IMG/VR virus record: IMGVR_UViG_3300012936_000001
Coordinates: 64,001 to 128,000 of that record
DNA length: 64,000 bases
From: a virus
Direction: 5' to 3' (one strand)
The position numbers were made by a program, and so were the translations under genes. Shown piece after piece: positions 1,212 to 63,232 of the stretch; the stretch's first letter is position 1; each line of letters begins with the position of its first letter. Below the pieces are notes generated by a model, which saw only the letters and a list, made by a program, of their open reading frames with translations, ran no database searches and had not been told where the DNA came from.

Positions 1212-2915
1212 ATGTCTAATATCTTTGATGAAGCGATTGCAGACGCAAAAAAACTAAAAGAAATTGCGGAACAAAATGCAAAAAATAGGATTATAGAGGC
1301 TGTTACACCTAAAATAAAAAGGCTTATCGAAGCTGAAATTGCTGGTGAAGACATGGACCTGGAAGATGCAGAAGAAGATTCTGATGATTATGAAGAGTTC
1401 ACAGCCGGCGATACTGCCATGGATGTGGATTCCTCTTCTGGGCTGGATCTAAGTTATAACGAACCTGTGGAACCAGAAATGCCAGCAGATATGGGGTCAC
1501 CTATGATGACCGACGACATAGATCTGGATGATGGCCTTGGCCTAGAAATAGAAGACGATAAACCAGAAAAGAACGTTGTCATCAACGTCACGGTAGAAAG
1601 TGCCAGAAAATCTGCGTTGTCAAAATTGAGAAAAAGAAAAGCAGTAAAATTACTTGAAAGTCTAAGAAGTGCTAAAAATGCAAGCAAAAAAAGAAAAATG
1701 CTTTCTGAATTGGCAAAACTACAAAGAGAGTGCATATCTAGTAGTAGTACTGTTGACAAAAAATTAGCAAGAAAATTATCAACTTTATTAAAGGAGACAA
1801 ATATGTCTAGAAGAACACGAAAAAACTGGTTTTTATTCGAAGGCGAAGGTGAAGGCGAAGACGAGGACTTGGATCTCGGCGGAGACGAAGATCTTGACCT
1901 TGAAGATGAAGACGAAGAAGTGGACGTCGATGCTATTAAGTCAGCAATCGAAGAATTAGCTGATGCAGTCGGTCTTGAAGTAATGGACGAGGACGAGGAC
2001 GAAGACGAAGACGTAGAGGGTGAAGAAGAGGAAGAGGAAGAAGATCTTGACCTTGGAGAAGCCGATATGGATGATGTCGATATGGCAGAGGGAATATACG
2101 AAGCTGACATGGATGAAGACGAGGATCTCAAAGAAGACGATGATAAAGTCGTTGAGATTAACGAGTCTGCTCTTCGTAGAGACCTTATGAGAATGAAGCG
2201 CAATGCTCGTAACCGTCGTTCTCGACGACTTGCAGAATCACGTCGTTCAAGAAGCGCAAGCAGAAGACGCCGCAGACTTTTTGAAGCAGAAGCAGTAGAT
2301 GCTGCTAGCCATTTTGGCGGCGGATCTGCCGAACAAGAAATGTTCATTGATGTCGACGAAAACACTCTTATTAATGCTCTCGCAGAAGAACTTGGAGACG
2401 CACACGATCTTGACATGAACATAGACGGATCTGGAGATGCTTCCAAAGCAGCCGGCCATTTTGGCGGCGGAAAAGCTCAGGCTATTCGTGAAGCAAGACG
2501 AAGAAGAGCAATCGCTCGTCGTGCAAAAATTACAGAGTCTCGCGCAAAGCGTGCAGTACTGGCTGAACGCAAGAAAGCTGCAGCTGCAAAGCGTGAACTC
2601 AAAGAATCAAATCTTTTTAATGCAAAATTGTTGTATGTAAACAAATTGATGCAACAGCATGTTCTAAACAAAAAGCAACAGCGTGCGATTGTTGAGGCTC
2701 TTGATAATGCCAAGACGTTACGTGAAGCAAAACTACTTTTCGAAGGGCTTTCTGATTCTCTTTCGAAAGCAAAAAGAAAATCAGGCAACAGCCTAAATGA
2801 ATCCAGAGTTATTTCCGGAAGATCATCAACTGCAACTCGTAGCTCTGCTCCTGCAACTACTCAAATGAGTTCGGACCTTTCTAGATGGCAAAAACTCGCT
2901 GGAATCAAAAAGTAA
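1212..2915 (+). CDS. Prohead core/scaffold protein (T4 gp22-like position)
   Basis: Directly upstream of the MCP. Acidic low-complexity tracts, Arg-rich segments, many [LI]xE sites, LKESNLFNAKLLYVNKL block and C-terminal RWQKLAGI. Start placed at ATG 1212 after GGAGA. Confidence 0.75.
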   Translation: MSNIFDEAIADAKKLKEIAEQNAKNRIIEAVTPKIKRLIEAEIAGEDMDLEDAEEDSDDYEEFTAGDTAMDVDSSSGLDLSYNEPVEPEMPADMGSPMMTDDIDLDDGLGLEIEDDKPEKNVVINVTVESARKSALSKLRKRKAVKLLESLRSAKNASKKRKMLSELAKLQRECISSSSTVDKKLARKLSTLLKETNMSRRTRKNWFLFEGEGEGEDEDLDLGGDEDLDLEDEDEEVDVDAIKSAIEELADAVGLEVMDEDEDEDEDVEGEEEEEEEDLDLGEADMDDVDMAEGIYEADMDEDEDLKEDDDKVVEINESALRRDLMRMKRNARNRRSRRLAESRRSRSASRRRRRLFEAEAVDAASHFGGGSAEQEMFIDVDENTLINALAEELGDAHDLDMNIDGSGDASKAAGHFGGGKAQAIREARRRRAIARRAKITESRAKRAVLAERKKAAAAKRELKESNLFNAKLLYVNKLMQQHVLNKKQQRAIVEALDNAKTLREAKLLFEGLSDSLSKAKRKSGNSLNESRVISGRSSTATRSSAPATTQMSSDLSRWQKLAGIKK

Positions 2916-2961: not shown

Positions 2962-4920
2962 ATGTCATTTACATTGCAAAAGTTGACAGAGGGCATTCGT
3001 CAACGTCACATGGGTGCCCAACATCAACGACTTACAGAAAAATGGAACCGCACAGGTCTTCTTCGTGGTCTTAACGGACAAAACAAAGAAAACATGGCAG
3101 TTCTTCTCGAAAACCAAGCCGCTCAACTTTTGAGAGAGGCAAACACTCTTGGAGCTACTAGTGCTAGTGGAACTGGTCCCTCTGCTTCCGGAGACATTCG
3201 CGGATTCCAGAACGTTGCATTCCCAATCGTTCGCCGAGTATTTGGTGGATTGGTTGCAAACGATCTCGTATCTATTCAGCCCATGAGCCTTCCAGCTGGA
3301 TTGCTCTTCTATCTTGATTACACTTACGGTTCAAGCGTCGGTGGAGCAGATGGAACAGTTGACTCTACTGTTTATCAACAAGGTCAGTCAATCTACAACA
3401 ACCCTGCTGGAAAAGGAATTCAGTCTGGTTCTTTGGCTGTAGGTGGACAATACGATCTTGCTGGTGCAGGATTCTCACGAAAGCATACAGCTGCTGTTCT
3501 GGCCGAATCAAATACACTCGGAACAAACATTGTAACAGGTGTTTGGAGTCCTAGCGACGCATTCCAAAATGGAGCTAGCGTTTCTGATGCTTACATCTCT
3601 GCAGTTGGACAGTTTACTGGTTCTAACGCTCGATTGATGCAATATGATCCTCAGATTCGTACTGCTCTTGATAATAACGAGCTCGGCGCTGTTCTTTTTG
3701 CTATGATCCCTACATCTTTGATGACTGGATCTAATTCAGAACAAGCTGATCTTACCATGATCAAGGACATTGCACTTACTGCTGAAAAGGCCGGAGAAGC
3801 TACAAACGCTGCATTGCTTACTCAGTGGGGAGAAAAATATCAAGGTGGAAACAACGTCAAGAACCTCCGACGTCTCAACCAATTGGTTACGTGGGACGGC
3901 TCTGGTCTTCCTGTGCATGCTCCTCTTGCTGAATACAATACTTCAAATGCTTATGTATTGATGGTTGTAAAAGCGACAAAGGGCGCAATCCCTACTCTTG
4001 CAACTTTGGCTGCCGAGCAAATTGGTGATCTTTCTTTCCCAATTAAGCCTACCAGAACTTCTGGCGACAGCGGCGATTCAATCTTGGTTCCAACTTTTGA
4101 ATCTAACATGCTTGCTGGTGCTTCAAACGCTCCTGTTATTCCTGAAATCGACATTAAGATCGAATCTATCTCTGTTACCGCGGTAACTAGAAAGCTTCGT
4201 GCTCGTTGGTCTCCAGAACTTGCTCAGGACTTGAATGCATACCACTCTATGGATGCAGAAGTTGAGTTGACTCAGATTCTTTCTGAGCAAATTGCTCTTG
4301 AACTTGACCGTGAGATTCTTAACGACCTTCTTACTCAGGCAAATGGTGCTAACCTTTACTGGTCACGCGCTCCTGGTAAATTCGTCAACAAAGAAACCGG
4401 TTCTCAGATTGCTGTCTCAACTTCTGTGGCAAGTCCTTCTTTCACTGGTACAGTTCGTGAATGGTACGAAACTCTTACAGAGACCATCATCGACGCTGCT
4501 AACACTATTCACCGTAAGACTCTTCGTGGATCTGCTAACTTCATCGTGGTTGGACCTGATGTTGCTACAATCCTTGAAAGCTCTGTTCTTTACAAGCCTG
4601 TATACAGCCTTGACGGTGACGGGCAAGTTGGTAACCCAATGACTATTGGCGCCGAGAAAGTTGGTAACTTGAGCAATCGTTTCACAGTCTACAAGGATCC
4701 TTACTTCCCACGTAACAAGATCTTGATCGGTTACAAAGGTGGTTCTTATCTTGAAACTGGTTATGTATATGCTCCTTACGTGCCTCTTATTGTTACCCCT
4801 ACGATCTTTGCTCCTGAGGACTTCACTCCTCGTAAGGGTGTAATGACTCGTTACGGTAAGAAGATGGTTCGTTCTGACTTCTACGGAACTGTTACATGCT
4901 TGGATATGCACATCATCTAA
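2962..4920 (+). CDS. Major capsid protein, T4 gp23-like
   Basis: FPIVRRVFGGLVANDLVSIQPM, TRKLRARWSPELAQDL, EIDRE-like ELDREI, YAPYVPL and FTPRKGVMTRY are gp23-family motifs. Large central insertion. Confidence 0.95.
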   Translation: MSFTLQKLTEGIRQRHMGAQHQRLTEKWNRTGLLRGLNGQNKENMAVLLENQAAQLLREANTLGATSASGTGPSASGDIRGFQNVAFPIVRRVFGGLVANDLVSIQPMSLPAGLLFYLDYTYGSSVGGADGTVDSTVYQQGQSIYNNPAGKGIQSGSLAVGGQYDLAGAGFSRKHTAAVLAESNTLGTNIVTGVWSPSDAFQNGASVSDAYISAVGQFTGSNARLMQYDPQIRTALDNNELGAVLFAMIPTSLMTGSNSEQADLTMIKDIALTAEKAGEATNAALLTQWGEKYQGGNNVKNLRRLNQLVTWDGSGLPVHAPLAEYNTSNAYVLMVVKATKGAIPTLATLAAEQIGDLSFPIKPTRTSGDSGDSILVPTFESNMLAGASNAPVIPEIDIKIESISVTAVTRKLRARWSPELAQDLNAYHSMDAEVELTQILSEQIALELDREILNDLLTQANGANLYWSRAPGKFVNKETGSQIAVSTSVASPSFTGTVREWYETLTETIIDAANTIHRKTLRGSANFIVVGPDVATILESSVLYKPVYSLDGDGQVGNPMTIGAEKVGNLSNRFTVYKDPYFPRNKILIGYKGGSYLETGYVYAPYVPLIVTPTIFAPEDFTPRKGVMTRYGKKMVRSDFYGTVTCLDMHII

Positions 4921-12443: not shown

Positions 12444-15400
12444 ATGTCAGAACAAATATTAAAAAGTCCAGGAGTTTCCGCAAGAGAAATAGATCTGTCT
12501 CAACCAGGCAGCACATCCCCTAGGGGAATACCTGCTTGCGTTATTGGAACAGCTCAGAAAGGTCCGGCTTTTGTGCCTATTACCTTTGCATCTTATGCTG
12601 ACTTTAAAACAAAATTCGGTGGAACCGATGGAAAATTATTCGGCCCAATTGCTGTCGCGGAATGGCTAAGAAATGCTCAGTCAGCAACTTATGTGAGAGT
12701 TCTTGGCGTCGGAAATGCAAAAAAAGCAAATACAAACGGAACTACAACTAATGCTGGTTTTGTCGTTGGTAATAAGCTTCCTCAAGCTGGAGGAAACATC
12801 GGAAGGAACATACACGCTACGGATCTCCGTCCCGCTGGCCGAACATTCTTTTTATCTGCCTTTATGAAAGACAAGTCTGATGCAAATGCTGATAAAATTG
12901 GATATTTGACAGACGCAGATTTGTCTGGATCTGTAGATAAAGCAGTGTTGAGAGGTTGTATTCTTGTCGCTTCTGGTGTACGTCCTGCATTGTCCGGATG
13001 GGACGCTTCTGAACTGGATGCCCCAAATACTACGACAACAATAACTAGTGATGCTGGCCATGAGGTTGGAGCCGTAAATTTGAATACTAATGGCGATGAA
13101 TCATTTGTAATGTTCCTTAACGGATTCACGAATACAAATGCTCAAACGGCTATAATCACCGCTTCGATGAATCCTTTGAGTAAAAATTATTTTTCTAAGG
13201 TCTTGAATACAGATCCAACAAAAATAGAAGAAAAAGGTCATTATCTTTATGCTCATTTCGACGTTCATCCAAATCAGGCAACGGTTACTGCGATGGAATA
13301 TCCGGAGAGAGATAAGCAACTCGAAAACGCAGTGGGTTATGCTCACCGCGTAATAATTCAATCAGGTTCACATACTAGAAATACTTTTCATGGTTCACAA
13401 TACAAGCCTAATTTTGAAAACTTTGAAGACAAATTTAAACATGCAGAGTCTCCGTGGATTATATCTCAGACACTAGGTTCCGGACCAAAAAATCTATTCA
13501 AGGTATATGCGCTAGACGCCGGAGAATATGCGAATACTCTTTTCAAAATATCTATTGCAAATATTAAAAAATCTTCTGATGTTAATTATGATTATGGCCA
13601 ATTTGATTTGTTGGTAAGAGCATTCGATGATACGGATGCAGAGCCACAAATCCTAGAAAAATTCACAGCTTGCTCTCTAGATCCTTCTTCCGATCGATAT
13701 ATAGCTAGGGTTGTAGGCGATCAGAATATATTCTTTGATTTTGAGAAACAAGACGCAAATCAAAAATTGGTTATAGAAGGTTTGTACCCAAATAGATCGC
13801 AATATATCAGAATTAAGGTTGTCGACGATGTTGAAAATGGCGTTATTAGCGCAACTGCTCTTCCGTTCGGATTCCGAGGAAAGAAACACTTGGTTCTTGA
13901 TGGTGTTTCTCTTGGTCCTCTAGACGCATCTGCTACCACCGGTCTTGATGAAGCAGAAATAGACGGAAATGTCTTTGAACCGCCTGTTCCACTTCGAAAA
14001 ACTCTACGCATAGGGCAAGGATCATTGTCAAGAATCGATTCTCGACTTTATTGGGGTGTTCAAAATACTATGCAAGGATCTGTTCTTGATCCAAATGCAT
14101 CCAGTGTTATTAATCCTCTGATAGCTAACTTTACAAAATATTTTCCAACCTTTGGAACCTATGCTCCTTTCGTCGGAGACAACGCCGGCGCAGCGAATGA
14201 TTCCAATGGAGCAAAGCTTGATAGCGATGCCTATAATAACAACATGTTTACCTTCGAAAGAATATGGGCAAAATGTAAATCCGGAGCTGTTGCAAACGCT
14301 GTCGATAATTTGCAATGGCACGAAGCCGTTTATATCAGATCAGGTTCTACGCCGGCCGCTAATTCTGGGCTTGGATATTTCCAAGAAGATGACGGTTCTA
14401 CGCCGAAGACGGCTGCGAATGGATATAGATTCTTGGATTACACAAAAGACTTTGGCGAACAAGCTTCGAAGAAATTCTTCAAGTTTACTACATTTTTGCA
14501 AGGCGGGTTTGACGGTTTGAATGTCTTCAAGAAAGATATGCATGAATTGGCCAACAATCAGGCACATCGAGAAGCTCTATATTCGACGTCAACCGGTTAC
14601 GGAACAACTGGGCCTACGATCGCGGCATATAGAAGAGCACTTGATATAGTAGCAGAAAAATCAGACGTCGATATTCAGTTGTTGGCAATTCCTGGTATTC
14701 GAGAGCCATCTATCACCGACTATGCCATCGATCAAGTAGAAAACAGATTTGATGCATTGTACATTATGGATGTAGAAGAAGAAGAAACTTCTGCTGGAAC
14801 AGTCGTAACTTCGTCTTTGCAAAATATCAACGTAACAAATACTTCTAATCGACTTTCAAACAGAGTGCTTGATTCTTCTTTTGCAGCGGCATATTTCCCA
14901 GATGTGATCATTGCAGATCCGGATTCAACAGCCAACATTCAGTCGCCACCTTCTTGTGCAGTATTAGGAGCAATGTCTCTTAACGACTCTGTCGCGCATC
15001 CTTGGTTTGCGCCTGCAGGATTTTCTCGCGGGGCTTTGTCGTCAACTATCGAAGCACAAGTAAAATTAAATCGTGCAAATATGGATTCTCTTTATGAAGC
15101 AGACATCAATCCTATAGTTGCTTTCCCAACTTCTTCTGGTGTTGTAATCTTCGGACAGAAAACTCTTCTGCAGGCTCAGTCTGCTCTTGATAGAGTAAAC
15201 GTAAGAAGATTGCTGATAGACATCAGAAGAAAAGTAAGATTGGTCGCAAACTCTGTGTTGTTCGAGCCAAACAGAGAGTCAACTCTTGCAAGATTCTCTG
15301 CTTCCGTTCAGCCGATTCTTACGGTTATTCAACAGCAACAAGGACTAGATAGATTCAAAGTCGTTATCGATACAACCACAACAACCCAGCAAGATGTTGA

Positions 15401-15500
15401 GAATAATACGATAAGAGGAAAAATCTTCTTGCAACCCACAAGAGCTGTAGAATTTATCTCTCTAGATTTTGTTGTTACAAATGCTGGTGCAGAGATTTAA
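12444..15500 (+). CDS. Contractile tail sheath protein 2 (paralogue)
   Basis: SPGVSAREID, GPAFVP, PWFAPAGFSRG, LDRVNVRRL, FEPN and PTRAVEFI motifs. Confidence 0.95.
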   Translation: MSEQILKSPGVSAREIDLSQPGSTSPRGIPACVIGTAQKGPAFVPITFASYADFKTKFGGTDGKLFGPIAVAEWLRNAQSATYVRVLGVGNAKKANTNGTTTNAGFVVGNKLPQAGGNIGRNIHATDLRPAGRTFFLSAFMKDKSDANADKIGYLTDADLSGSVDKAVLRGCILVASGVRPALSGWDASELDAPNTTTTITSDAGHEVGAVNLNTNGDESFVMFLNGFTNTNAQTAIITASMNPLSKNYFSKVLNTDPTKIEEKGHYLYAHFDVHPNQATVTAMEYPERDKQLENAVGYAHRVIIQSGSHTRNTFHGSQYKPNFENFEDKFKHAESPWIISQTLGSGPKNLFKVYALDAGEYANTLFKISIANIKKSSDVNYDYGQFDLLVRAFDDTDAEPQILEKFTACSLDPSSDRYIARVVGDQNIFFDFEKQDANQKLVIEGLYPNRSQYIRIKVVDDVENGVISATALPFGFRGKKHLVLDGVSLGPLDASATTGLDEAEIDGNVFEPPVPLRKTLRIGQGSLSRIDSRLYWGVQNTMQGSVLDPNASSVINPLIANFTKYFPTFGTYAPFVGDNAGAANDSNGAKLDSDAYNNNMFTFERIWAKCKSGAVANAVDNLQWHEAVYIRSGSTPAANSGLGYFQEDDGSTPKTAANGYRFLDYTKDFGEQASKKFFKFTTFLQGGFDGLNVFKKDMHELANNQAHREALYSTSTGYGTTGPTIAAYRRALDIVAEKSDVDIQLLAIPGIREPSITDYAIDQVENRFDALYIMDVEEEETSAGTVVTSSLQNINVTNTSNRLSNRVLDSSFAAAYFPDVIIADPDSTANIQSPPSCAVLGAMSLNDSVAHPWFAPAGFSRGALSSTIEAQVKLNRANMDSLYEADINPIVAFPTSSGVVIFGQKTLLQAQSALDRVNVRRLLIDIRRKVRLVANSVLFEPNRESTLARFSASVQPILTVIQQQQGLDRFKVVIDTTTTTQQDVENNTIRGKIFLQPTRAVEFISLDFVVTNAGAEI

Positions 15501-50610: not shown

Positions 50611-53600
50611 ATGAAACCAACAAAATTTGTCGGATTGCATGCTCACGATGGCTTTTCGACTTTCGATGGCCTTGACTATCCACAGGATCACATTGACTTT
50701 GTAAGATCCAACGGCATGAATGCAATGGCCATTACGAATCACGGGCACATGAATTCGTATGCACACGCGCAGCTTCACGTTGAAAAGATTAATAAAGCCG
50801 GAGCTAATTTCAAGTTCATTCCAGGCTGTGAGATGTATGTTCATCCCGACTTGAATCTTTGGCAACTAGAATACGACATTCGCAAAGCGAAGAAGAAGGG
50901 CAACCTAGAAGAGGCGGCCCGCCTAGAAGAACTACGTAAAGAGATAGATCCCACCATTCAATCGTCTGGTGATGATGTCGAAGAAGTTGCAACAGAAGAC
51001 GCCGGTCTAACGATCGAGAATGAAGACGAAACAAAGTCTGGAAAGTTCTTTGATCCAATCAAAAGACGTCACCACTTGGTAGTTCTTCCTCGAACCTCAA
51101 CAGGGCTGCAGCGGCTTTTTCATCTAGTGTCTCGTGGATACAAGGAAGGATTTTATCGCTTTCCTCGAGTTGATTATAAGATGTTGAAAGAGGCTGCCAA
51201 AGGTGGACATATAATGGTGTCGACAGCCTGCCTAGGTGGTCCGTTGAGCTATGAAGTCTTCAAGCAGTTGGATGGAATAGAGTTCGATGACATACGCCCT
51301 GAACTTCTTGATAATCCAGAATTACGCAAAAAGATTATGCAGAACGTATCCATTGCATATAATCAGCTGGTCAATGCAATCGGAGAAGAGGGAGTAATGC
51401 TCGAACTTCAGTTCAATCGACTCGGCGCACAACATCTTGTGAATCGCGTTCTTATTGAGTTCGCTCGAGATAATGGCCTTACAGATAAACTCATCGTAAC
51501 ATGTGATTCACATTATTCAAAGCCTTCGCATTGGAAAGAGCGTGAGCTTTACAAAAAACTTGGATGGATGAATCACCGTGAATTCTCACCGGATTCTTTG
51601 CCGAAGTCTATCGAAGAACTCAAGTGTGAACTGTATCCAAAGAATGCAGATCAGGTGTGGCAGTCATACAAAGATACAACGCAGGGAATGCCGTTCTATT
51701 CAGACAAGGAAGTATTCGATGCTGTCGAACGCACTCACTATATTGCCTATGAGATGATTGGAGATATTCAGCCGGATCGCTCTCAAAAGCTTCCGTCGTA
51801 TGTAATCCCAAAAGACAAGACAGCTGATCAGGCACTTATTCTTTCATGTAAAAAAGGGCTTGTTGAAAGAGGTCTGCATAAAAGTAAAGAATACATCGAT
51901 CGACTTAAGTATGAACTTACGGTCATCAAATCAAAGAACTTTTCAGAATACTTCTTGACCACCAAGGCAATTATCGACTTGGCAAGAAAGCATATGTTCG
52001 TCGGCCCCGGCCGCGGCTCTGGAGCCGGTTCACTTGTGAATTATGTACTCGGTATCACAGATGTTGATCCTATCAAGTATGGTCTTCTCTTTGAAAGATT
52101 CTTGTCTCCTGACCGAAAAGACATGCCAGACATCGATACAGACATCGGCGACCGAGATCAATTGATTACCTTGATGCGTGAAGAGTTCGGAACAGAGAAC
52201 ATTGTTCCTATCTCAAACTACAATACTTTCAAACTCAAGTCATTGGTAAAAGACATATCTAGATTCTATGGCATTGAGTTCTCAAAGGTAAACAAGGTTC
52301 TATCAAGTCTAGACCGAGATGTTCGCCAAGGGCTTCGATCGGACGGTGTAGAAGTGAATGGCCCTGTCGAAGCAAAGCTAGAGTGGGCAATAAAGTATTC
52401 TCCGGCTTTCTCAAAATTCATCGAAGATCATCCGGAGATTGCAGAACCTATTGATGTATTGTTCAAACAGAACAAGGCGCTTGGCCGACATGCAGGTGGA
52501 GTTATTGTATCAGAAAATATTGCAGAACGAATGCCTCTCATTCTTGCTCGTGGAGAACTACAGACTCCGTGGGTAGAAGGAGCTTCGTACAAACATCTAG
52601 AACATTTTGGTTGGGTAAAGTTTGATCTTCTCGGCCTAGAAACTCTTCGGATCATAGAAAGAACAATCGAGCTTATTCTCAAGAGAAAGAAAGGAATCAA
52701 GGATCCATCGTTCGATCAGATCAAGGATTGGTTCAATGAGAATATGGCAACGGACACTATCGACTTTGATGATCAACGAGTGTATAAAAACGTGTATCAT
52801 AAAGGCAAGTGGGCTGGTATATTTCAGTGTACTCAGGCAGGTGCCCAACAATTGTTCAAGAAGGCTCAACCGTGTTCGATTGTAGATATAGCAACGCTAA
52901 CTTCTATCTATCGTCCAGGACCGCTTGGAGCAAACGTAGATAGATTGTATCTTCGCAACAAGAAGGAGTACAGTGCAACATACGGCCATCCTCTCATCGA
53001 AAAGATTCTTGAAGAGACATTCGGTTGCATTATCTTTCAAGAGCAGGTGATGGAGCTTGCGAACAAGGTTGCTGGTATTCCAAAAGAGGAATGTAATTCT
53101 GTACGTAAAATGATGAAGCCGCAAGGCTCATCCAAAGATGCTTTGTCAAAAGCAAAAGCACTGGAAGATAGATTCGTCGGCGGCTGTATCGAGAATGGCA
53201 TCTCTAGAAAGATTGCTCAAAAGTTGTTCGATGACATTATGTTGTTCGCATCGTATGGGTTCAATAAGTCACACGCGGTTGCTTATGCGATTGATTCGTA
53301 CTATTGTGCTTGGCTGATGACATACCATGAAGAAGAATGGCTCTGTGCGTATCTCGAATCCATGGAAGGCAATCCGGACAAACGAGGAAAAGCTTTCTCC
53401 GAAGTCCAAGCTCTGGGATATGAGATTGTTCCAATCGATATCAACTACGCTGAAAAGAACTGGACTATTCTTCCAGGAAAGAAGTTCATGCCATCGTTCC
53501 GTTCCTGCAAAGGGATTGGCGATACGGCGATCGATGAGATAATAGAGAATAGACCTTATCATTCTTTCAATGAGATGTTCTGGACCGATGAAGGAAAGTG

Positions 53601-54192
53601 GAAACTCAGCAAGTTCAACAAGCGTGCCATAGAAAGCCTTATTCGGATCAAGGCTCTCGAGTCGATGGGCGAGATAGGCGATGGCAAACTGTTTGAGTCC
53701 TACAAACACGCGTATGAGTCGATTATACCAAATTGGAATAATATCCGAAAGTCTCTCAAGAAGAATCCACTTCAAGGCAAAGATAATTTCTACGAAGCAG
53801 TCGAGACAAATGCCGGCTGCGGTGAGTGGACTCGGATGGAAATCATCAAGAATGATATGGACCTTCTAGGATCAGTGTCCGTAGAGAAGATCGTGCCGCC
53901 TCGATACTTGAAGAGGTTCAGCCAAGAAGGATTTTTACCGGTTGATGAATATGCCGGCAGATATTTTTACTGGTTCATTGTCGTTCAAATGACTCCGAAG
54001 AAAACAAAAAACGGGAAGTCTTATCTCCGACTAAAGATTATGGGACAAAACGGCCGGCAGGAATGGATGAACGTCTGGTCCTGGAATGGAATAGACCAGA
54101 TCGACCCTTATACGGTCTGTGTTGCTGAAGTCTCAGAGAATGCGTTCGGAAAGTCTTCTCGCTGGTCACGATTCGAAATATTCACAGAATAA
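50611..54192 (+). CDS. dnaE: DNA polymerase III alpha subunit (family C)
   Basis: PHP domain (LHAH, TNHG, STACLGG, DSHY), GRGSGAGSL, MPDIDTD, HAGGV, KFDLLGL and YGFNKSHA motifs. Confidence 0.95.
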   Translation: MKPTKFVGLHAHDGFSTFDGLDYPQDHIDFVRSNGMNAMAITNHGHMNSYAHAQLHVEKINKAGANFKFIPGCEMYVHPDLNLWQLEYDIRKAKKKGNLEEAARLEELRKEIDPTIQSSGDDVEEVATEDAGLTIENEDETKSGKFFDPIKRRHHLVVLPRTSTGLQRLFHLVSRGYKEGFYRFPRVDYKMLKEAAKGGHIMVSTACLGGPLSYEVFKQLDGIEFDDIRPELLDNPELRKKIMQNVSIAYNQLVNAIGEEGVMLELQFNRLGAQHLVNRVLIEFARDNGLTDKLIVTCDSHYSKPSHWKERELYKKLGWMNHREFSPDSLPKSIEELKCELYPKNADQVWQSYKDTTQGMPFYSDKEVFDAVERTHYIAYEMIGDIQPDRSQKLPSYVIPKDKTADQALILSCKKGLVERGLHKSKEYIDRLKYELTVIKSKNFSEYFLTTKAIIDLARKHMFVGPGRGSGAGSLVNYVLGITDVDPIKYGLLFERFLSPDRKDMPDIDTDIGDRDQLITLMREEFGTENIVPISNYNTFKLKSLVKDISRFYGIEFSKVNKVLSSLDRDVRQGLRSDGVEVNGPVEAKLEWAIKYSPAFSKFIEDHPEIAEPIDVLFKQNKALGRHAGGVIVSENIAERMPLILARGELQTPWVEGASYKHLEHFGWVKFDLLGLETLRIIERTIELILKRKKGIKDPSFDQIKDWFNENMATDTIDFDDQRVYKNVYHKGKWAGIFQCTQAGAQQLFKKAQPCSIVDIATLTSIYRPGPLGANVDRLYLRNKKEYSATYGHPLIEKILEETFGCIIFQEQVMELANKVAGIPKEECNSVRKMMKPQGSSKDALSKAKALEDRFVGGCIENGISRKIAQKLFDDIMLFASYGFNKSHAVAYAIDSYYCAWLMTYHEEEWLCAYLESMEGNPDKRGKAFSEVQALGYEIVPIDINYAEKNWTILPGKKFMPSFRSCKGIGDTAIDEIIENRPYHSFNEMFWTDEGKWKLSKFNKRAIESLIRIKALESMGEIGDGKLFESYKHAYESIIPNWNNIRKSLKKNPLQGKDNFYEAVETNAGCGEWTRMEIIKNDMDLLGSVSVEKIVPPRYLKRFSQEGFLPVDEYAGRYFYWFIVVQMTPKKTKNGKSYLRLKIMGQNGRQEWMNVWSWNGIDQIDPYTVCVAEVSENAFGKSSRWSRFEIFTE

Positions 54193-56106: not shown

Positions 56107-56997
56107 ATGATAGAACCTTCTTCCGTAAACATGGTGATATACCACGCAAACTGTAACGATGGATTTGGCGCAGCATACGCTGCTTGGAAACTGTTAGGAA
56201 ACAGAGCTGAGTACTATGCTGCCAATCACGGTACGCCGCCTCCTGACGTAAAGGGAAAGAAAGTAGTGATACTTGATTTTTCATATGGTAACACAACGAC
56301 AAAGCTTTTGATTGAAGACGCCGAATCTTTGTTTATTATCGATCATCATAAATCAAACATGGTTGAGCTCCATGACATTACAAATACACATTTTGATATG
56401 ACAAAAAGCGGTGCCATGCTATCATGGGAGTTCTTTCACCCAGGCAAAGAGGCGCCAAAATTTATTCAATATATACAGGACCGAGATCTCTGGAAGTGGG
56501 AACTACCGTATTCGAAAGAGTTCAGCGCTGCCTTTGACATGGTCCCATGGGAGTTTGACGAATATGAAAAATTTGAAGATGATTCTGTGTTCGACGATGC
56601 TGTTAAACGTGGATCATATATACTTGCATATTCAAAGACAGTGGTCAAGAAAGTATGCGATAAAGCGACAAAAAGAAATTTTGGAGAACATGATGTGATG
56701 GTCGTAAATTCTTCTCATTGGATGTCTGAAATTGGAGCTACTCTCGCAAAAGACTGCGACTTCGCGATGATATGGTACTACGATCACGATGAACAAATAT
56801 ACAAATGTTCGCTCAGAGCATTTCATGACACCGTCGACGTGTCTGAGATAGCAAAGAGATTCAAGGGAGGTGGTCATCGAAAGGCTGCGGGGTTTGTCCT
56901 GCCGAGGCAAAAACATCCGGATTCTATCTTCTTTCCGGAAAAAGAAATTAAGAATTGTGAATGGATGGAAGAAAGAGGAGAGTTCGGTGCCGACTAG
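56107..56997 (+). CDS. DHH/DHHA1 phosphoesterase (NrnB-like)
   Basis: YHANCNDG, LDFS, IDHHK, DRDLW, SLR and GGGHRKAAGF motifs. Confidence 0.88.
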   Translation: MIEPSSVNMVIYHANCNDGFGAAYAAWKLLGNRAEYYAANHGTPPPDVKGKKVVILDFSYGNTTTKLLIEDAESLFIIDHHKSNMVELHDITNTHFDMTKSGAMLSWEFFHPGKEAPKFIQYIQDRDLWKWELPYSKEFSAAFDMVPWEFDEYEKFEDDSVFDDAVKRGSYILAYSKTVVKKVCDKATKRNFGEHDVMVVNSSHWMSEIGATLAKDCDFAMIWYYDHDEQIYKCSLRAFHDTVDVSEIAKRFKGGGHRKAAGFVLPRQKHPDSIFFPEKEIKNCEWMEERGEFGAD

Positions 56998-57403
56998 ACC
57001 AGAATGGGATAAGATATGGACGGACTTCGCAAAGTTGATCTCTACTCGTTCAACAGATCCGACTTTCCAGGTAGGGTGTTGTATCGTGACACAAGACAAT
57101 ACTCAGGTACTCGCTATCGGATATAACGGAGACCACAAAGGTGGACCGAACGAGAGAGAATCAATGGAGCCTGGCCATTCGGGATTTATTCATGCAGAGA
57201 TTAACGCTCTTATTAAGATGGATTATAATAATCCAAAGAAGAAAACAATATATCTCACCTTATCTCCATGCAAATCCTGCTGTAAGGCCATAATTAATGG
57301 TGGTATAGATAGAGTAGTGTACACAACCGAGTACCGGGAAACATCTGGAATAGAATTATTACAAAAGGCAGGAATTGAGGTCGTATACTATTCTGCCGAA
57401 TAA
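56987..57403 (+). CDS. dCMP deaminase
   Basis: RS....QVG, GYNG, HAEINA and SPCKSC motifs; GTG start after GAGGAG. Confidence 0.9.
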   Translation: MPTRPEWDKIWTDFAKLISTRSTDPTFQVGCCIVTQDNTQVLAIGYNGDHKGGPNERESMEPGHSGFIHAEINALIKMDYNNPKKKTIYLTLSPCKSCCKAIINGGIDRVVYTTEYRETSGIELLQKAGIEVVYYSAE

Positions 57404-57432: not shown

Positions 57433-60400
57433 ATGTTACTAGATGAACTTTTAGAAAGCGTAATAATGGCAGCGCATGCATTGAACGAAAAAGATGCATC
57501 AAAAAGTCTAGACGAAGTAGAAGGAGATGAGGAGAAAGACGACTTTGGTGAATTTAATAAGTACATTGACAGAATAACAAAGAATTCAAAAAGTTTGGAA
57601 GATTTGCTCAAAAAGGAACTCGGCGACAATGAAGGTGCTAAAAGTATCCTTTTGCCTTTTGAAACTACGCGAACACTCTTGTTAGGGACACAGGAAACGA
57701 TAGCGAATCCAAAAACAGATTTTCAAGATCCAAAAAATGAAAATGCGAAACAAATAAATAGCACTTTGCAAAATTTTATGATCAATCTTGTATCACTGCG
57801 AAGAGGGCTGGAAAGTCTAGCGGAATGGTCAAAAGGCTTAGATAAGATAGGAATTAAGGACGCACAATTTAATAAGTTGTTTGGTGTTGTTCAAAAAGAA
57901 TCAATGATTCATAAATCTAGTCTTTCTTCTCTGCTATTAGAAATGAAATCACCAGAAGACTATCCTGCTGGATCTATTGCAAAAGCGATTGCAAACCTTG
58001 CCAATTTCAACGTTAATCTAAAAGACGTTTTTGACCCAGACGGAAGAGAACATAAATTAGTAATCAATTATTTTAAGAAGCTGGATGACAACATTGGCAA
58101 ATTAGAAAAGACGCTAGGAAACAAAAAAGCACTTGAAAGCGAAATTGATAAATTTTTCAAAACAAGACCAGGCCAAGGTGTCATTGCAGCTGCCTGGTCC
58201 TTTGCTAAGTCAATGGTGGCATCCTTTTTTAAGCCGGCACCTATTGGCGATGGAACAATTCTTAATGCTAGGCAAGCCATGGGATCAATAGAAGAACCAT
58301 CAGGCCTCTTGTTTCTTAGTCCAAAGCAGATCATAGATATAAACGAGAAGGTCAACACTGGTCTCAAGGACATGAAGAAGAATGTCTCTATCGTGCGGGA
58401 CATGCTCGCATTCGGCGGAAAAGACGCAGACAGAATCCAGGCATACATCAAGGATAACGAAATAGAGGCCGACGATTATCTAGAAGATCTAGATGCAAAT
58501 ATAGACTGGGACAAAGAAAAAGACTACAAGAAGCTAAAAGCGGCAATGATATCGTCAGACTATTATGGAGAATCCTATCAGGTTCAAAAAAATCTAATAC
58601 ACAAGAACACGATGCAAAATCTTTTGTTCGAAGACGCAGAAGAATTTGTCGATCTTTGGAATCAATTTCTCTCAAAAGGTAACAACATAACCCAGAAGAC
58701 AAAGGAAGCCGGGACCCTCCTGTTTCCGAAATTATCAGATGATTATGACTGGAGTGGTGAAACCCTAAATTGGGAAAAGAAAAAAGAGCCCGACATGGCT
58801 TTTCCGCAAGGTAGCCTTTATCCCTCCTCTGACGACCCAGAATTTCGAGCGATATTGAAAAAGGTTGAGAAGAAAGAACCTCTCTCAGACGAAGACCAAA
58901 ATAAATTAAAGGAATTAGTGAAGGAAGAACCATATAAAAAAGCAGATCTCGCACAGGCCTTCATCGAAGACAAAGGTAATGATATCAATAACGCAGATTT
59001 GGCCAATCAGATTGCTGACATTATTACGTTAGGTAACGATGAAGTATTGCTGTCTGCGGTTGACGATGACAGAGAGCAGATCAACAAAACCTTAGAAGAA
59101 AAAGGAATCCCGTATGCAATCAACGCAGAAAAGGATGATGACGGCAAACCCATTGCAATTAGATTGATAAGGGTTGAAGATAAGCCAGAGCGCGGAATAA
59201 ATCTGCCCGCCGGTAAGACAAAGGTCTCAAGGGCTGCGATGAAGGCTTTATTTCCCGATAAAGATGAGATAATCACCCAAGCACTCGCCGCGTTAGGAAA
59301 TTACGAATTGATCGAATCTAATAAATTGCTGCACAGAAATTCACTAGCCCAGTTATTATCCGAAGAAAAACAATCGCTATTAAAGTACATTGTTTCTTAT
59401 TATAGCAAGAACGCTATTGATCAAACCCAAAAACACTGGGAAAATACCCCGGGAGCCAAAGACGCGGCACTGAAAAGACTGAACAATATGCTAATACAAA
59501 AGAAAGATGTGCTCAAGGAAAAAGGAATTGATCTTGATGAAGAAATAGAGATTGCCGAAGAAGAGCCAGGTGAAACAACGATTACACTAGAGCCTGGTAA
59601 ATACCCTGATCCAAAAAGCGCCGAGGAGGAACTTGACAGCTCACCTGTGACTGATGATCTACCAACCGCGGAAAAGAAGAAAGTAGCGTCAGTCATGGTT
59701 GGTGTATCACAGAAAGAAACAACGCCTCAAGAAGCTAACGCTGAATTGTTTGGCACTGGCTTGGGAGTAATGACCCCCACAGGTAAACCCTTGGAGTTGG
59801 TCGAAGAGGAACCTCCTCCACCCAAGCCGAAGAAGGAAGAAGGGCAGCCGGTACCCGATGAGAAAGAAACATTTTATTATTCTTTTACACCGCTGAACAC
59901 ATTTAGGCCTACCAAGACCAAAATCGCTACAGTTGAAGAAATCATAGCCAATATGAAGAACGATAGCATCGCGTCGCATATGGTTTATTTATCTGCAAAA
60001 GATGGTTGGTCTATGAACACTTTTGGCTCCTTTGACAACGACTGGCCTCAGGTCCTAGGAGGATCCTCGGATGCTGCCTCTGAGAAAAAAGGCGTCTCAA
60101 AACAAAAAATCAAATCCCTATTCAGCAACACTACTTCGAAATTCTACGACGACCTTGAATATAAATATACCGGCAAAGACGGCAGCAACAGCAAACGTGA
60201 TATGGGCAGTTCGTTGATGATGCATATTCCAAAAGCTATTGCTTCAGCAACCGGCCTGGAGCTGACAGAATCTCGCCTTATTCACAAGTCAAGTCTATCA
60301 TCTCTTCTCAGAGAGGCTTCTGTTTTTGATAAAATATTTGATGAGTTTCATTCTAGTTTTGCTAAGAAAGCGCAAGATAAAGATGGAGGAATATTCAAAA

Positions 60401-61371
60401 AAGAACCATTGAAAAAATTCCTAAGAGGCATTTTTGAGAAGGAAGAATTAAAATCCGTCATGAAAGACTTAGGGGTCGACGATGTTTTCTCCGGTGGAAC
60501 AGATGATGAAGAACCGGAAGCAGACGTTCAACCAGTGAGTGTGCCAAAAACTGGCAGCCCAAAGGAGGATGTGGAGAAAGACCTCAACAAAGCCGGGATC
60601 CAAAATTCGAAAGAAGTTGCTAATGACCTTGATGCGGATGGAGATGGCAATATAACGTCCAAAGAAGCTGAGGATCTTGCAAAGAAAAAGGAGGACATAA
60701 CCGCCAAACCTGGGGAAGACGATTCAACTAATCTTATTGTGGAACCTTCCGCCGAACAGAAAGATTCGGGCACAAAGATAAGCAGAAAAACAGACTTGAG
60801 AGATTTCACCGAAGATGAACAAGATACCATCGAACTGGCGCTTGCCGACATATTAGATGGAGATATTGTAACAGAATCCAGCCTACACAAACTTGGACTA
60901 GGCATTTTACTTGAAAACAAAGCAAACGATTTTGTAGAGCTGTTATTTGATTCTGGCCTAGAAGCTGAGCAGGTTCAAACCATTATCAAGAAGATAAAAG
61001 ACAACAAGGATCTTAGCGACAAATTAAAGAAGCTCGGCATAGATATGGAAGAGACATCAGAAAAATCTATTCCAGGCGTAACTATTCGACCGAAATTTAT
61101 GGACCTCATTAATAAAAAGAAAAAACAACTAGCAACCCAAGCATTCACGCGAGATCCAGAAGAGGGTGGTATAAAAGGTCTTCCTGGGGTCAATGTATTG
61201 AAGAAAATGTTCGGGGACCCGACACAAGTTGCTAATATCGAAAAGACTTATAACTATATTGCCAAGAAAACAGTAAAGGCTCCAATCTTTCCAGAAGGAA
61301 AGCGCAGCCCCAAATCAAAACTTATTCACAAACGTAGTCTTACCGAAGCATTATTTAGTGACGATGACTAG
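57433..61371 (+). CDS. Large putative virion polyprotein with six repeated linker motifs
   Basis: 1312 aa. An [LI]H[KR]xSLxxLLxE-like motif has its His at residues 160, 390, 634, 951, 1152 and 1299; one EF-hand loop. Confidence 0.75.
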   Translation: MLLDELLESVIMAAHALNEKDASKSLDEVEGDEEKDDFGEFNKYIDRITKNSKSLEDLLKKELGDNEGAKSILLPFETTRTLLLGTQETIANPKTDFQDPKNENAKQINSTLQNFMINLVSLRRGLESLAEWSKGLDKIGIKDAQFNKLFGVVQKESMIHKSSLSSLLLEMKSPEDYPAGSIAKAIANLANFNVNLKDVFDPDGREHKLVINYFKKLDDNIGKLEKTLGNKKALESEIDKFFKTRPGQGVIAAAWSFAKSMVASFFKPAPIGDGTILNARQAMGSIEEPSGLLFLSPKQIIDINEKVNTGLKDMKKNVSIVRDMLAFGGKDADRIQAYIKDNEIEADDYLEDLDANIDWDKEKDYKKLKAAMISSDYYGESYQVQKNLIHKNTMQNLLFEDAEEFVDLWNQFLSKGNNITQKTKEAGTLLFPKLSDDYDWSGETLNWEKKKEPDMAFPQGSLYPSSDDPEFRAILKKVEKKEPLSDEDQNKLKELVKEEPYKKADLAQAFIEDKGNDINNADLANQIADIITLGNDEVLLSAVDDDREQINKTLEEKGIPYAINAEKDDDGKPIAIRLIRVEDKPERGINLPAGKTKVSRAAMKALFPDKDEIITQALAALGNYELIESNKLLHRNSLAQLLSEEKQSLLKYIVSYYSKNAIDQTQKHWENTPGAKDAALKRLNNMLIQKKDVLKEKGIDLDEEIEIAEEEPGETTITLEPGKYPDPKSAEEELDSSPVTDDLPTAEKKKVASVMVGVSQKETTPQEANAELFGTGLGVMTPTGKPLELVEEEPPPPKPKKEEGQPVPDEKETFYYSFTPLNTFRPTKTKIATVEEIIANMKNDSIASHMVYLSAKDGWSMNTFGSFDNDWPQVLGGSSDAASEKKGVSKQKIKSLFSNTTSKFYDDLEYKYTGKDGSNSKRDMGSSLMMHIPKAIASATGLELTESRLIHKSSLSSLLREASVFDKIFDEFHSSFAKKAQDKDGGIFKKEPLKKFLRGIFEKEELKSVMKDLGVDDVFSGGTDDEEPEADVQPVSVPKTGSPKEDVEKDLNKAGIQNSKEVANDLDADGDGNITSKEAEDLAKKKEDITAKPGEDDSTNLIVEPSAEQKDSGTKISRKTDLRDFTEDEQDTIELALADILDGDIVTESSLHKLGLGILLENKANDFVELLFDSGLEAEQVQTIIKKIKDNKDLSDKLKKLGIDMEETSEKSIPGVTIRPKFMDLINKKKKQLATQAFTRDPEEGGIKGLPGVNVLKKMFGDPTQVANIEKTYNYIAKKTVKAPIFPEGKRSPKSKLIHKRSLTEALFSDDD

Positions 61372-61380
61372 GAGAAATAA

Positions 61381-61839
61381 ATGAAAAAGAAACTCACAGA
61401 AAAAAGAATCATCAACGCTATACGTAAAGTGTATCGCCAAAGACTGGCAGAAGTCGCCATAGCAGCCGGGCTAGAAGAAGCAGACATGTATGACAAAAGA
61501 GGCAACATGATTCTCTCTCAAGGATTGAAAGTTCGACACAAGGCTTCCGGATATGAATATACTGTAGACCATGTAGAGGGCGACGGAGACGGCGCAGTTA
61601 TATATCTTCGGCACCCAGACCAACCAAGATTCGAAGCAAGCGATTCAAACATGACAATATCAGAATCCGGAGTTTCCGTCGATCTATCCGGTGTAGATTT
61701 ACAGAGAGTCGCTGGCAAAAAGAAAATGCCAAAGGTTCAGCTGAAAAAGAAACCAGATGCCGGAGAGTTGAAAATACCAAAGTCTTCTCTTTTGGCGGTA
61801 AGTAAAGAAGAATTCGACAAAGCATATGAGGTAGAATAA
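61381..61839 (+). CDS. Hypothetical protein with KLTEKRIINAIRK leader
   Basis: AGGAG RBS; beta-rich core GLKVRHK.SGYEYTVDHV. Confidence 0.7.
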   Translation: MKKKLTEKRIINAIRKVYRQRLAEVAIAAGLEEADMYDKRGNMILSQGLKVRHKASGYEYTVDHVEGDGDGAVIYLRHPDQPRFEASDSNMTISESGVSVDLSGVDLQRVAGKKKMPKVQLKKKPDAGELKIPKSSLLAVSKEEFDKAYEVE

Positions 61840-62525
61840 TGGATAGAACAATTAAAAAAATTATCAAAGAGACGTTAGCCGTGAAAGAAAAAGGCCCGAT
61901 AAACGAGTCTTATGTTACTCGAGCAAAGAAATATGATTTACCTACAGAACTATTGTCCGAAAAGAATAAGAAGGCACACCAGGAGCTCTTAGCCAACTAT
62001 GTGGAATCTCTCAATGCGGTCTCTGCGAAACTAGACACTGTATCTCGAGACGATGCTAGCCTAAACCATTCTTCGATTCGTTCACTAAAAATTGATGAAA
62101 CATATAATGCCAACGCTGCTTATCTTCATGCCCTTTTCTTCCAGAACATCTCAGACCTCAAGTCAGTTATCACGATGGATTCTCTTACTTTTATCAGGAT
62201 CGAAAGAGATTTTGGATCTTTTGATGCGTGGCAAAAAGATTTTATTGCAACATGTCTTTCAGCTAGAAATGGATGGGGACTATTGGTATACAATATGTTC
62301 CTAGGAAGATACATGAACGTGGTCGTAGACCTCCATTCTCTCAACGTTCCGATTGCTTCTATTCCTATCTTGATTATGGATTGTTGGGAACATTCATACT
62401 ACAGAGATTATCTTAAAGATCGCAAGACATATGTGTATGCTATGATGAAAGAAATAAATTGGGAAGTAGTAGAAAAAAGAGTCCGTAAAGCAGAAAAGAT
62501 CGCCAAGATTCAGGAGAAAGGATAA
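61839..62525 (+). CDS. Fe/Mn superoxide dismutase-like protein with N-terminal leader
   Basis: Candidate ligands in KAHQEL, YLHALFF and DCWEHSYY; IERDFGSFDAW and INWEVVEKR motifs. Confidence 0.85.
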   Translation: MDRTIKKIIKETLAVKEKGPINESYVTRAKKYDLPTELLSEKNKKAHQELLANYVESLNAVSAKLDTVSRDDASLNHSSIRSLKIDETYNANAAYLHALFFQNISDLKSVITMDSLTFIRIERDFGSFDAWQKDFIATCLSARNGWGLLVYNMFLGRYMNVVVDLHSLNVPIASIPILIMDCWEHSYYRDYLKDRKTYVYAMMKEINWEVVEKRVRKAEKIAKIQEKG

Positions 62526-63232
62526 TGAGATATAAGAGGAATAGGCTTTGGGAACTTGCAGGTATAGTTCATCGATCCGAACTTCTTACCGAAGGAGGTG
62601 ACGATGCCGGTGACGACAAAGAACTAGATGCTGGCGGTGACGACGATGCAGGCGGAGATGATGCAGAAGATTCCGGTGGCGATGATCTTTTCGGCGGAGG
62701 AGACGAAGGCGGCGATGAGGGTGAATCTGGAGGCGATAAGGAAGGTGAAGAAAAAGAAGAAGAGGAGCCTGCCGAAGTTCTCACAGCATCAGAGATTTCT
62801 CGATACGGCACCGGAGAGTTTGAGACCGAGATCGATGAAATCTTTATGACTATTTTTGATCAGGCGAAAGGCCGAGCAAAAGTAAGATCGGAAAAATCTA
62901 TTGGTTATCCTGGAAAAATAGATTTGGAGGAATCAAGAAAATATAGCCTGAGAGTGCTTCTGGAAGAAGCAGACCCAAATTCTGAAGAGTTTGATTTAGT
63001 CTTTTTTACAAATGAAATAGCAAGATACATAAACAACTATACTACTCTGCTAGACGTAGAAGGAATTTTATTTTCGAAGGCAAAGCAATTTTTATTAAAT
63101 CAGCGATCGAAAGAAGAAGCAAATACGTTTGAAGAACTTCTAGCAAGAGATCATGGTCTTAACTTTTCTCATGACGACATATACAAAAAACCACTACCAC
63201 CGGAGGCTGCAGGAGCCAAGGCTTCATCATAA
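62525..63232 (+). CDS. Acidic Gly/Asp-rich putative prohead-associated protein
   Basis: RLWELAGI...LLTE leader, GGDD-rich tract and an internal ESRKYSLRVLLEE. Confidence 0.7.
   Translation: MRYKRNRLWELAGIVHRSELLTEGGDDAGDDKELDAGGDDDAGGDDAEDSGGDDLFGGGDEGGDEGESGGDKEGEEKEEEEPAEVLTASEISRYGTGEFETEIDEIFMTIFDQAKGRAKVRSEKSIGYPGKIDLEESRKYSLRVLLEEADPNSEEFDLVFFTNEIARYINNYTTLLDVEGILFSKAKQFLLNQRSKEEANTFEELLARDHGLNFSHDDIYKKPLPPEAAGAKASS

Follow-up and report, generated by a model that had tools for sequence, protein, structure and literature searches.

A 64,000-nucleotide stretch of DNA from an uncultured virus (the window: positions 64001-128000 of IMG/VR record IMGVR_UViG_3300012936_000001, a 167-kb fragment with a CheckV completeness of 62%) encodes a 1312-aa protein, P0001, in which six copies of a short Glu-ended peptide, here called the joint, separate segments unrelated to one another. 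Sequence features give, in our judgement, an even chance that P0001 belongs inside the head, with modules linked by protease sites, and is cut into pieces at head maturation. The case is built on the statistics and conservation of the joint motif, a prohead protease gene, the likeness of the joints to capsid and scaffold sites and the variability of the slot that the P0001 gene occupies. An earlier note on this DNA had read P0001 as a candidate capsid polyprotein matured by a T4 gp21-like protease into about six proteins. That interpretation is partly supported; its label is loose, since P0001 resembles no capsid protein and would act as internal cargo or core protein. Coordinates are those of the window unless given as record positions, which refer to the whole 167-kb record.

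Six joints in P0001

The sixfold recurrence was confirmed in the translated open reading frame (ORF), at the positions and in the number that the earlier note had given. The six copies share the consensus h-h-H-[KR]-x-[ST]-[LM]-x-x-L-L-x-E (h, hydrophobic), with the His at residues 160, 390, 634, 951, 1152 and 1299, so that 6 of the 12 His residues of P0001 are located within the motif. The pattern H-[KR]-x-x-[LM]-x-x-[LIA]-[LF] matches P0001 six times, whereas 20,000 shuffles of the protein averaged 0.0066 matches, with at most 1 in any shuffle. The motif is absent from all other ORFs of at least 50 aa on either strand of the 167-kb genome, and a 22-column joint profile run against the six-frame genome returned the same six places and nothing further at E up to 10. 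Five joints close with L-x-E and the sixth contains L-T-E. The gene and its parts are listed below (a slash marks the putative cut; relatives are described further on).

57433..61371, + strand: P0001 ORF, candidate polyprotein; ATG start, 1312 aa, 146 kDa, pI 4.9, orphan
57433..57903, + strand: segment 1, 157 aa, pI 4.7; homologous to the P0006 N-terminus
57904..57942, + strand: joint 1, aa 158-170; ends L-L-L-E/M, with Q-K-E-S just before the joint
57943..58593, + strand: segment 2, 217 aa, pI 5.4; homologous in P0006 and P0003, weakly collinear with the L006 slot protein
58594..58632, + strand: joint 2, aa 388-400; ends L-L-F-E/D (compare the scaffold site K-L-L-F-E/G)
58633..59325, + strand: segment 3, 231 aa, pI 4.6; P0006 counterpart only for the first ~35 aa
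59326..59364, + strand: joint 3, aa 632-644; ends A-Q-L-L-S-E/E, with L-I-E/S before it at 59308-59316
59365..60276, + strand: segment 4, 304 aa, pI 5.0; long predicted coil at ~aa 700-830, no homologue found
60277..60315, + strand: joint 4, aa 949-961; ends S-L-L-R-E/A, with L-T-E/S before it at 60262-60270
60316..60879, + strand: segment 5, 188 aa, pI 4.4, very acidic; no homologue found
60880..60915, + strand: joint 5, aa 1150-1161; ends I-L-L-E/N, with V-T-E/S before it at 60868-60876; orthologous joint in P0006
60916..61320, + strand: segment 6, 135 aa, pI 9.6, the sole basic one; homologous in P0006 and P0008
61321..61368, + strand: joint 6, the C-terminal tail, aa 1297-1312; holds L-T-E/A plus an acidic end

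The segments (157, 217, 231, 304, 188 and 135 aa) showed no similarity to one another (BLASTP, all pairs E > 1), in keeping with the original description of unrelated segments and no overall repeat. Five are acidic (pI 4.4-5.4) and the last is basic (pI 9.6). P0001 as a whole is rich in K/E/D and predicted to be mostly helical or coil; AF2 models likewise suggest mostly helices, with a coil tract at ~aa 700-830. It has no family match in Pfam, PHROG or PDB, no peptidase family among its Pfam results and no usable match in an ESM Atlas search. Homology to the inner-body or ejection proteins of phiKZ and SPN3US was looked for in PHROG and by tblastn against 50,697 phage records, with no match in either. 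Joints 1 and 4 share an identical ten-residue string in which 7 of 10 codons differ, as the earlier note had counted, every change being synonymous; the gene holds no DNA repeat beyond ~20 nt at 75-80%.

Searching the joint profile against 5.8 billion proteins identified one true full-length homologue, P0006 (1007 aa, on a 265-kb contig), together with P0002, P0007 and P0008, which are fragments of a relative with ~84% identity to P0001. Because these fragments and the more distant P0006 (32-34%) exist, P0001 is a real gene. P0006 aligns to P0001 residues 2-435 (32%) and 1146-1312 (34%), and the middle is unrelated. Its four joints stand at orthologous places and are 69% identical to those of P0001 (38/55), against 33% in the flanks (174/533). 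The exchanged middle has its right breakpoint at joint 5 and its left breakpoint ~35 residues past joint 2, and P0001, P0006 and P0008 hardly differ over the final ~30 residues, in which joint 6 lies. The linker is thus kept while the modules between joints are exchanged, and the differing codons together with the joint conservation in this 32% homologue bear out the claim that selection acts on the peptide rather than reflecting a DNA duplication. In contigs from four marine metagenome runs, strains were 90-100% alike and displayed three differences inside joints, two synonymous and one R-to-K; one contig from a single run jumps from 59564 to 61274, a signal too weak to interpret.

The P0001 family is rare. 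Beyond P0006 and the fragments, no relative was found by megablast or tblastn against phage records or by a word search of the 5.8 billion proteins; a representative protein search with P0001 returned P0002 and P0003 only. IMG/VR scans with P0001, P0006 and the tail alignment, one metagenome scan and a tail-only protein search yielded no further member, nor did 30 related full records. The homologues, like P0001, had no match in Pfam, PHROG or PDB.

A prohead protease and its likely sites

The genome encodes a Glu-type, gp21-like prohead protease, the absence of which the earlier note had named as a refutation of its proposal. The protein matched Peptidase_S77 (PF03420, the T4 gp21 family) at 92.6 bits against a cut-off of 27, and the His and Ser columns were invariant in an alignment over 13 relatives. 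The head genes follow the T4 order, with the protease gene first, then two small genes, the gene of a 567-aa scaffold-position protein and the capsid gene. In T4, gp21 cuts after L/I-x-E, strips propeptides of 7-65 residues and chops core proteins into several fragments (PMC9026906).

Record 62058-62684, 1.3 kb before the window: prohead protease gene, Peptidase_S77 (Pfam match at record 62169-62585)
1212..2915, + strand: scaffold-position protein, 567 aa, acidic/basic helical; tail R-W-Q-K-L-A-G-I at 2883-2906
2730-2744, + strand: putative scaffold cut site K-L-L-F-E/G, within the scaffold-position protein
2962..4920, + strand: T4 gp23-like major capsid protein; predicted maturation site Q-L-L-R-E/A at 3124-3138

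In the alignment with T4, residue 19 of mature gp23 falls on capsid residue 75, placing the equivalent cut within three residues of Q-L-L-R-E/A. This site is kept as [LVIA]-[LI]-[RK]-E in 17 relatives and is followed by a variable Gly/Ser-rich stretch, after which conservation returns; in Flavobacterium phage vB_FspM_immuto (MW353176), which has the nearest cultured capsid protein (44% identity), it reads I-V-S-E/A. By homology we infer that Q-L-L-R-E/A is the capsid maturation site, which would make it an independent model of protease specificity in the lineage. The immuto counterpart of the scaffold site K-L-L-F-E/G is K-L-V-F-E. The immuto gene between protease and capsid gene (MW353176.1 125582-126823; 4026-5267 of locus L115) carries the annotation 'DNA polymerase phi-like protein'. 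Its position, its acidic repeats and its R-W-Q-K-L-A-G-I tail identify the product as the scaffold protein, and low-complexity acidic sequence has probably misled the annotation.

A matrix built solely from the relatives' predicted capsid sites, as placed by the T4 alignment, was used to score all 52,373 proteome positions at several widths. Joint 3 ranked 2-12, varying with width, and joint 4 ranked 13-84, both within the top 0.2% or better at all widths; joints 1 and 2 fell in the top ~1% at widths 5-11, save joint 2 at width 7 (2.5%). The likeness is visible in the residues themselves: joint 4 ends S-L-L-R-E/A and the capsid site reads Q-L-L-R-E/A, and the L-L-F-E of joint 2 recurs in the scaffold site K-L-L-F-E/G. 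The earlier claim of T4-type [LI]-x-E ends is upheld, the last 5-9 residues of the joints being among the proteome's best matches to the capsid-site matrix. The accompanying claim that most linkers are bracketed by two cut sites stands for joints 3-5, which are preceded by h-x-E-S, but not for joints 1 and 2, which have no canonical upstream site. A complex prediction for a 44-aa joint region and the protease, the latter entered as a 13-row alignment, scored 0.02 and weighs neither way.

Other Glu-ended peptides of this genome stand at N-termini. At least nine unrelated genes encode proteins that begin M-[KR]-[IL]-[ST]-K-R-x-L-[KR]-R-I-I-x-E, exactly or with slight variation, and the joint spacing I-x-K-x-x-L-x-x-h-h-x-E is that of the M-K-I-T-K-R-x-L-[KR]-R-I-I-x-E leaders. 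On a leader-only matrix, joints 4, 1 and 3 ranked 41, 82 and 99 of 51,669 proteome positions; the joints are not independent of one another, and a kinship of joints and leaders is suggestive only. The P0001 N-terminus itself, M-L-L-D-E-L-L-E-S, is unlike the M-K-I-T-K-R leaders, the conserved peptide being internal or C-terminal instead. One protein downstream of P0001 has a probable clip-off leader, in which the tag elements of the lineage occur together:

62525..63232, + strand: 235-aa protein; 23-residue leader combining W-E-L-A-G-I and V-H-R-x-x-L-L-T-E/G

After its leader runs a tract of ~70 residues that are almost wholly Gly/Asp/Glu. Outside the window, a 718-aa protein (record 159956-162112) starts M-K-K-K-Y-S-L-K-R-I-L-G-E/A and has T-E-S-K-Y-S-L-M-N-I-L-R-E/D at residue 604; judged by these two peptides, it is a second protein of the genome with an internalised leader-like joint.

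The hypervariable slot and its genomic setting

The P0001 gene lies in a slot whose content changes from phage to phage. In 72 related IMG/VR loci fetched via the neighbouring DHH gene, the synteny DHH-g177-[slot]-d152-SOD-like-d235-d99 was conserved in ~70 related contigs, and the slot ranged from no gene at all in many relatives to proteins of ~1300 aa. None of the relatives' slot proteins was detectably similar to P0001 by tblastn. Nearly all of them end R-W-x-x-L-A-G-[IL], usually a few residues past an h-x-E-S/N site, and this tail also terminates the scaffold-position protein in the present genome, in 16/16 relatives examined and in immuto; it is absent from T4 gp22. Since the slot proteins bear the scaffold tail, their sequences suggest that they are co-assembled with the scaffold, and R-W-x-x-L-A-G-[IL] is a candidate lineage-wide head-loading tail. 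P0001 and P0006 do not have it and carry a joint-type tail in its place. This tail, typified by joint 6, is the best candidate in the two proteins for a targeting role, because it is nearly invariant and occupies the position of the relatives' scaffold tail.

Two slot proteins of relatives combine both elements: L006 (872 aa) has three P0001-type joints and L048 (751 aa) two to three, each with a scaffold-type tail. In an hhalign comparison of the P0001 family with L006, joint 1, segment 2 and joint 2 aligned at equal spacing (E 2.3e-4, probability 44%); a profile comparison with the main R-W-x-x-L-A-G slot family gave a probability of 10%, and homology to that family was not shown. Recurring Glu-ended peptides of other kinds are present in the slot proteins L039, L005 and L049, such as D-L-L-F-E with two copies in L039 and one in L005, and repeated cut-site-like joints may be common in the slot. 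Two more proteins of this genome, encoded outside the window (record 132448-133596 and 133597-134889), end R-W-x-K-L-A-G-[IL], and many orphan proteins of related loci have the tail as well. A Pfam scan of the two and of ten other tail-bearing proteins of relatives returned no families, leaving unsupported the idea that the two are ParB-like, which had come from a D-G-H-H-R-W string.

The phage belongs to a marine lineage of T4-like jumbo myophages; related IMG/VR records measure 235-289 kb. The large genes of the window are all on the + strand and include the T4 gp23-like major capsid protein, tail tube protein, baseplate hub, DNA polymerase III alpha subunit, thymidylate synthase, dUTPase, a DHH phosphoesterase and two large tail-sheath paralogues. 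The paralogues are adjacent (9247-12408 and 12444-15500), each exceeds 1000 aa, and they have only the C-terminal sheath domain in common with known sheaths. The polymerase subunit (50611-54192) is of the bacterial type, with PHP, NTPase, finger and HhH domains. A 177-aa ORF (56870-57403), which runs over the end of the DHH gene, is genuine and conserved, with 40-69% identity among relatives; the GTG listed as its start probably lies too far upstream. On the other side of P0001, an Fe/Mn superoxide-dismutase-like protein (61839-62525; C-terminal domain 80 bits, N-terminal weak) adjoins the slot in ~70 related phage contigs.

57400..57407, + strand: ATAATTAT, weak match to the promoter-like element CATAATTA, 33 nt upstream of the P0001 gene
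57418..57423, + strand: ribosome-binding site AGGAGA, 9 nt before the P0001 ATG

The element CATAATTA lies 23-43 nt upstream of ~8 genes and is enriched there genome-wide (for example at record positions 38463, 46257, 59184, 132408 and 148473; one copy precedes a 674-aa gene just before the protease cluster), which makes it a candidate for one of the phage's promoter elements. Late promoters of the T4 type, TATAAATA, number two in the whole genome, neither of them close to the P0001 gene. The P0001 gene had been said to follow a putative late promoter; a promoter-like ATAATTAT is indeed present upstream, but it matches CATAATTA weakly and lateness is not established.

Readings of P0001 and known systems

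From these observations we infer how P0001 might be encapsidated and cleaved, and what could become of its pieces. P0001 would be this phage's occupant of a hypervariable slot encoding head-internal proteins, whether cargo or core, with six unrelated modules of 15-34 kDa strung together by joints of 12-13 residues whose Glu-ended half would be a substrate site for the gp21-family protease. The His-Lys half may be an extended recognition or exosite element. Full-length P0001 would enter the prohead core by co-assembly, and the activated protease would then cut after each joint-closing Glu and at the h-x-E/S sites just before joints 3-5. Five or six polypeptides would be released, to stay with the DNA, perhaps to be ejected, or to be cleared like scaffold fragments.

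Several observations weigh against this proposal. The gene neighbours of P0001 are nucleotide-metabolism genes, and the P0001 gene lies ~52 kb downstream of the capsid gene, outside the portal-protease-scaffold-capsid cluster. P0001 has neither an R-W-x-x-L-A-G tail nor a basic leader at its N-terminus, the two candidates for a general tag. The capsid-site matrix gives joints 5 and 6 low scores (joint 5 in the top 1-6%), and the joint-leader likeness is in effect one comparison at a ~0.1-0.2% tail. P0001 contains 23 [LI]-x-E sites against ~20 expected from composition, so the cleavage motif alone is not enriched; what is distinctive in P0001 is the extended conserved context around the Glu, not the tripeptide. 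The joint was also considered as an amphipathic helix and rejected, its helical hydrophobic moment being low (7th-56th percentile). Single-sequence AF2 models of aa 1-660 and 640-1312 reached mean pLDDT values of 41.1 and 40.5, too poor for domain boundaries, exposed linkers or a fold search. The proposal, for an uncultured phage, is drawn from sequence.

The earlier note had gone further and taken each joint for a prohead-docking (capsid-targeting) peptide that gives multivalent core binding and is excised by two flanking cuts. We regard this as doubtful. The C-terminal joint does stand where relatives have the scaffold-type tail and is almost invariant in P0001, P0006 and P0008, the joint spacing resembles that of the N-terminal leaders, and h-x-E/S precedes joints 3-5 as it precedes the R-W-x-x-L-A-G tails of relatives. 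Against docking, the joint is confined to the P0001 family and occurs on no other protein of this genome or of the 30 related records, unlike the two peptides that look like general tags; L006 and L048 have joints plus a scaffold-type tail, so that the joint is apparently insufficient or unused for targeting there. A single polypeptide, moreover, needs only one tag, and joints 1 and 2 have no canonical upstream cut site. Equally doubtful is the idea of the joint as a dedicated, portable 'cut-here' cassette that recruits the head core or the protease and is cut out by cleavage at either end. A single late gene could in that case supply the capsid with six different cargo proteins in equal numbers, and new modules could be inserted wherever a joint stands (P0001 has six, P0006 four and L006 three). 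A limited literature search found no paper on jointed polyproteins or such a cassette.

A sacrificial role, with P0001 an auxiliary scaffold or inner-body-like filler that is cut only for clearance into functionless pieces, seems to us unlikely, and more so than docking. P0001 is acidic, K/E/D-rich, mostly helix or coil by prediction and free of domain matches, its fast divergence is compatible with weak constraint, and T4 gp22, gp67 and gp68 are cut into fragments that exit the head (PMC9026906; PMC5694885). However, the slot is empty in many relatives, which makes P0001 no essential part of the core; fragments of 15-34 kDa are large for clearance, and the ~32-34% conservation of segments 1, 2 and 6 between P0001 and P0006 suggests folded, selected modules. 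Less probable again is a cytoplasmic hub unrelated to the capsid, in which H-K-x-S-L-x-x-L-L would bind a host or phage partner six times and the Glu would be incidental. The invariant His and the L-x-x-L-L core do reach well past the tripeptide that a gp21-type protease requires, the gene sits among DNA-metabolism genes and P0001 lacks a general head tag; such a hub would nevertheless not explain why the Glu-ended half resembles capsid and scaffold sites, why a small or acidic residue follows the Glu as at the capsid site, why h-x-E/S sites precede joints or why slot relatives have the scaffold tail. Chance, a composition artefact or the remains of a recent internal DNA duplication can be dismissed, since a Leu/Ser/Lys-rich composition is all that speaks for them and they are excluded by the shuffles (six copies against 0.0066), the differing codons, the unrelated segments and the conservation of joints in homologues at 32% identity or less.

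Among known systems, the reading of P0001 as a cleaved head-internal protein places it within the T4 capsid-targeting and gp21-processing theme, of which its joints would be a variation. As with T4 IPI-III and Alt (PMC9026906, PMC3012670), there is a gp21-family protease and a peptide ending hydrophobic-x-Glu, the short peptide alone is conserved, the payloads are hypervariable and the genes lie outside the head cluster; Alt is trimmed at both ends (PMC9026906, PMC3012670). The T4 tags are single N-terminal leaders of 7-20 residues on single-module proteins, and P0001, which otherwise has the protease, the Glu end and the conserved tag on a variable payload expected of T4-type head cargo, has no such short leader. 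Its peptide is instead internal and sixfold, differs in sequence, has an invariant His, links unrelated modules and stands also at the C-terminus; unlike for the T4 tag, targeting is not indicated. T4 gp22, gp67 and gp68 and the SPN3US and phiKZ head proteins (PMC9026906, PMC10052503, PMC5694885) offer a parallel as acidic, helical, head-internal proteins with multiple Glu cuts by the prohead protease. The known multi-site cuts in the T4 core, SPN3US and phiKZ fall within propeptides or scaffolds, at a 3-residue motif, and leave debris and one mature product, whereas P0001 has a 12-13-residue joint between 15-34 kDa modules and no sequence homology to those proteins. The T4 trio is also cluster-encoded and lineage-conserved, in contrast to the P0001 gene, which is elsewhere and whose slot is empty in many relatives.

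Polyvalent proteins (Iyer et al. 2017, PMC5512222) are likewise large, mosaic and quickly reshuffled, with predicted capsid travel and processing. They are defined by recognisable effector or enzymatic domains, two or more per polypeptide, and often have their own peptidase (for example MPTase), whereas P0001 has neither and would be processed at its repeated joint by the prohead protease. Also comparable are the scaffold-tailed cargo candidates of the same slot and lineage (cultured representative vB_FspM_immuto, MW353176), which have h-x-E followed by S or N before the tail as at joints 3-5; in P0001 and P0006 the scaffold tail, itself of putative role, is swapped for a joint-type tail.

Should the joints prove to be left uncut, P0001 would still be unusual as an orphan protein with a strongly conserved, sixfold short motif. 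If they are cut in the head, T4-like phages could pack several unrelated proteins from one gene and swap them module by module, and the T4 capsid-targeting paradigm would widen from single tagged proteins to jointed polyproteins. As portable cassettes, the joints would give phages their own version of the polyprotein strategy known from RNA viruses, with injected effectors as the products. Together with the scaffold tail and the N-terminal leaders, they would provide rules by which head cargo could be predicted from the sequences of uncultured phages, and they could be used as cut sites when proteins are loaded into engineered capsids. For the abundant marine jumbo phages, the proposal would mean a pool of fast-evolving, possibly injected proteins.

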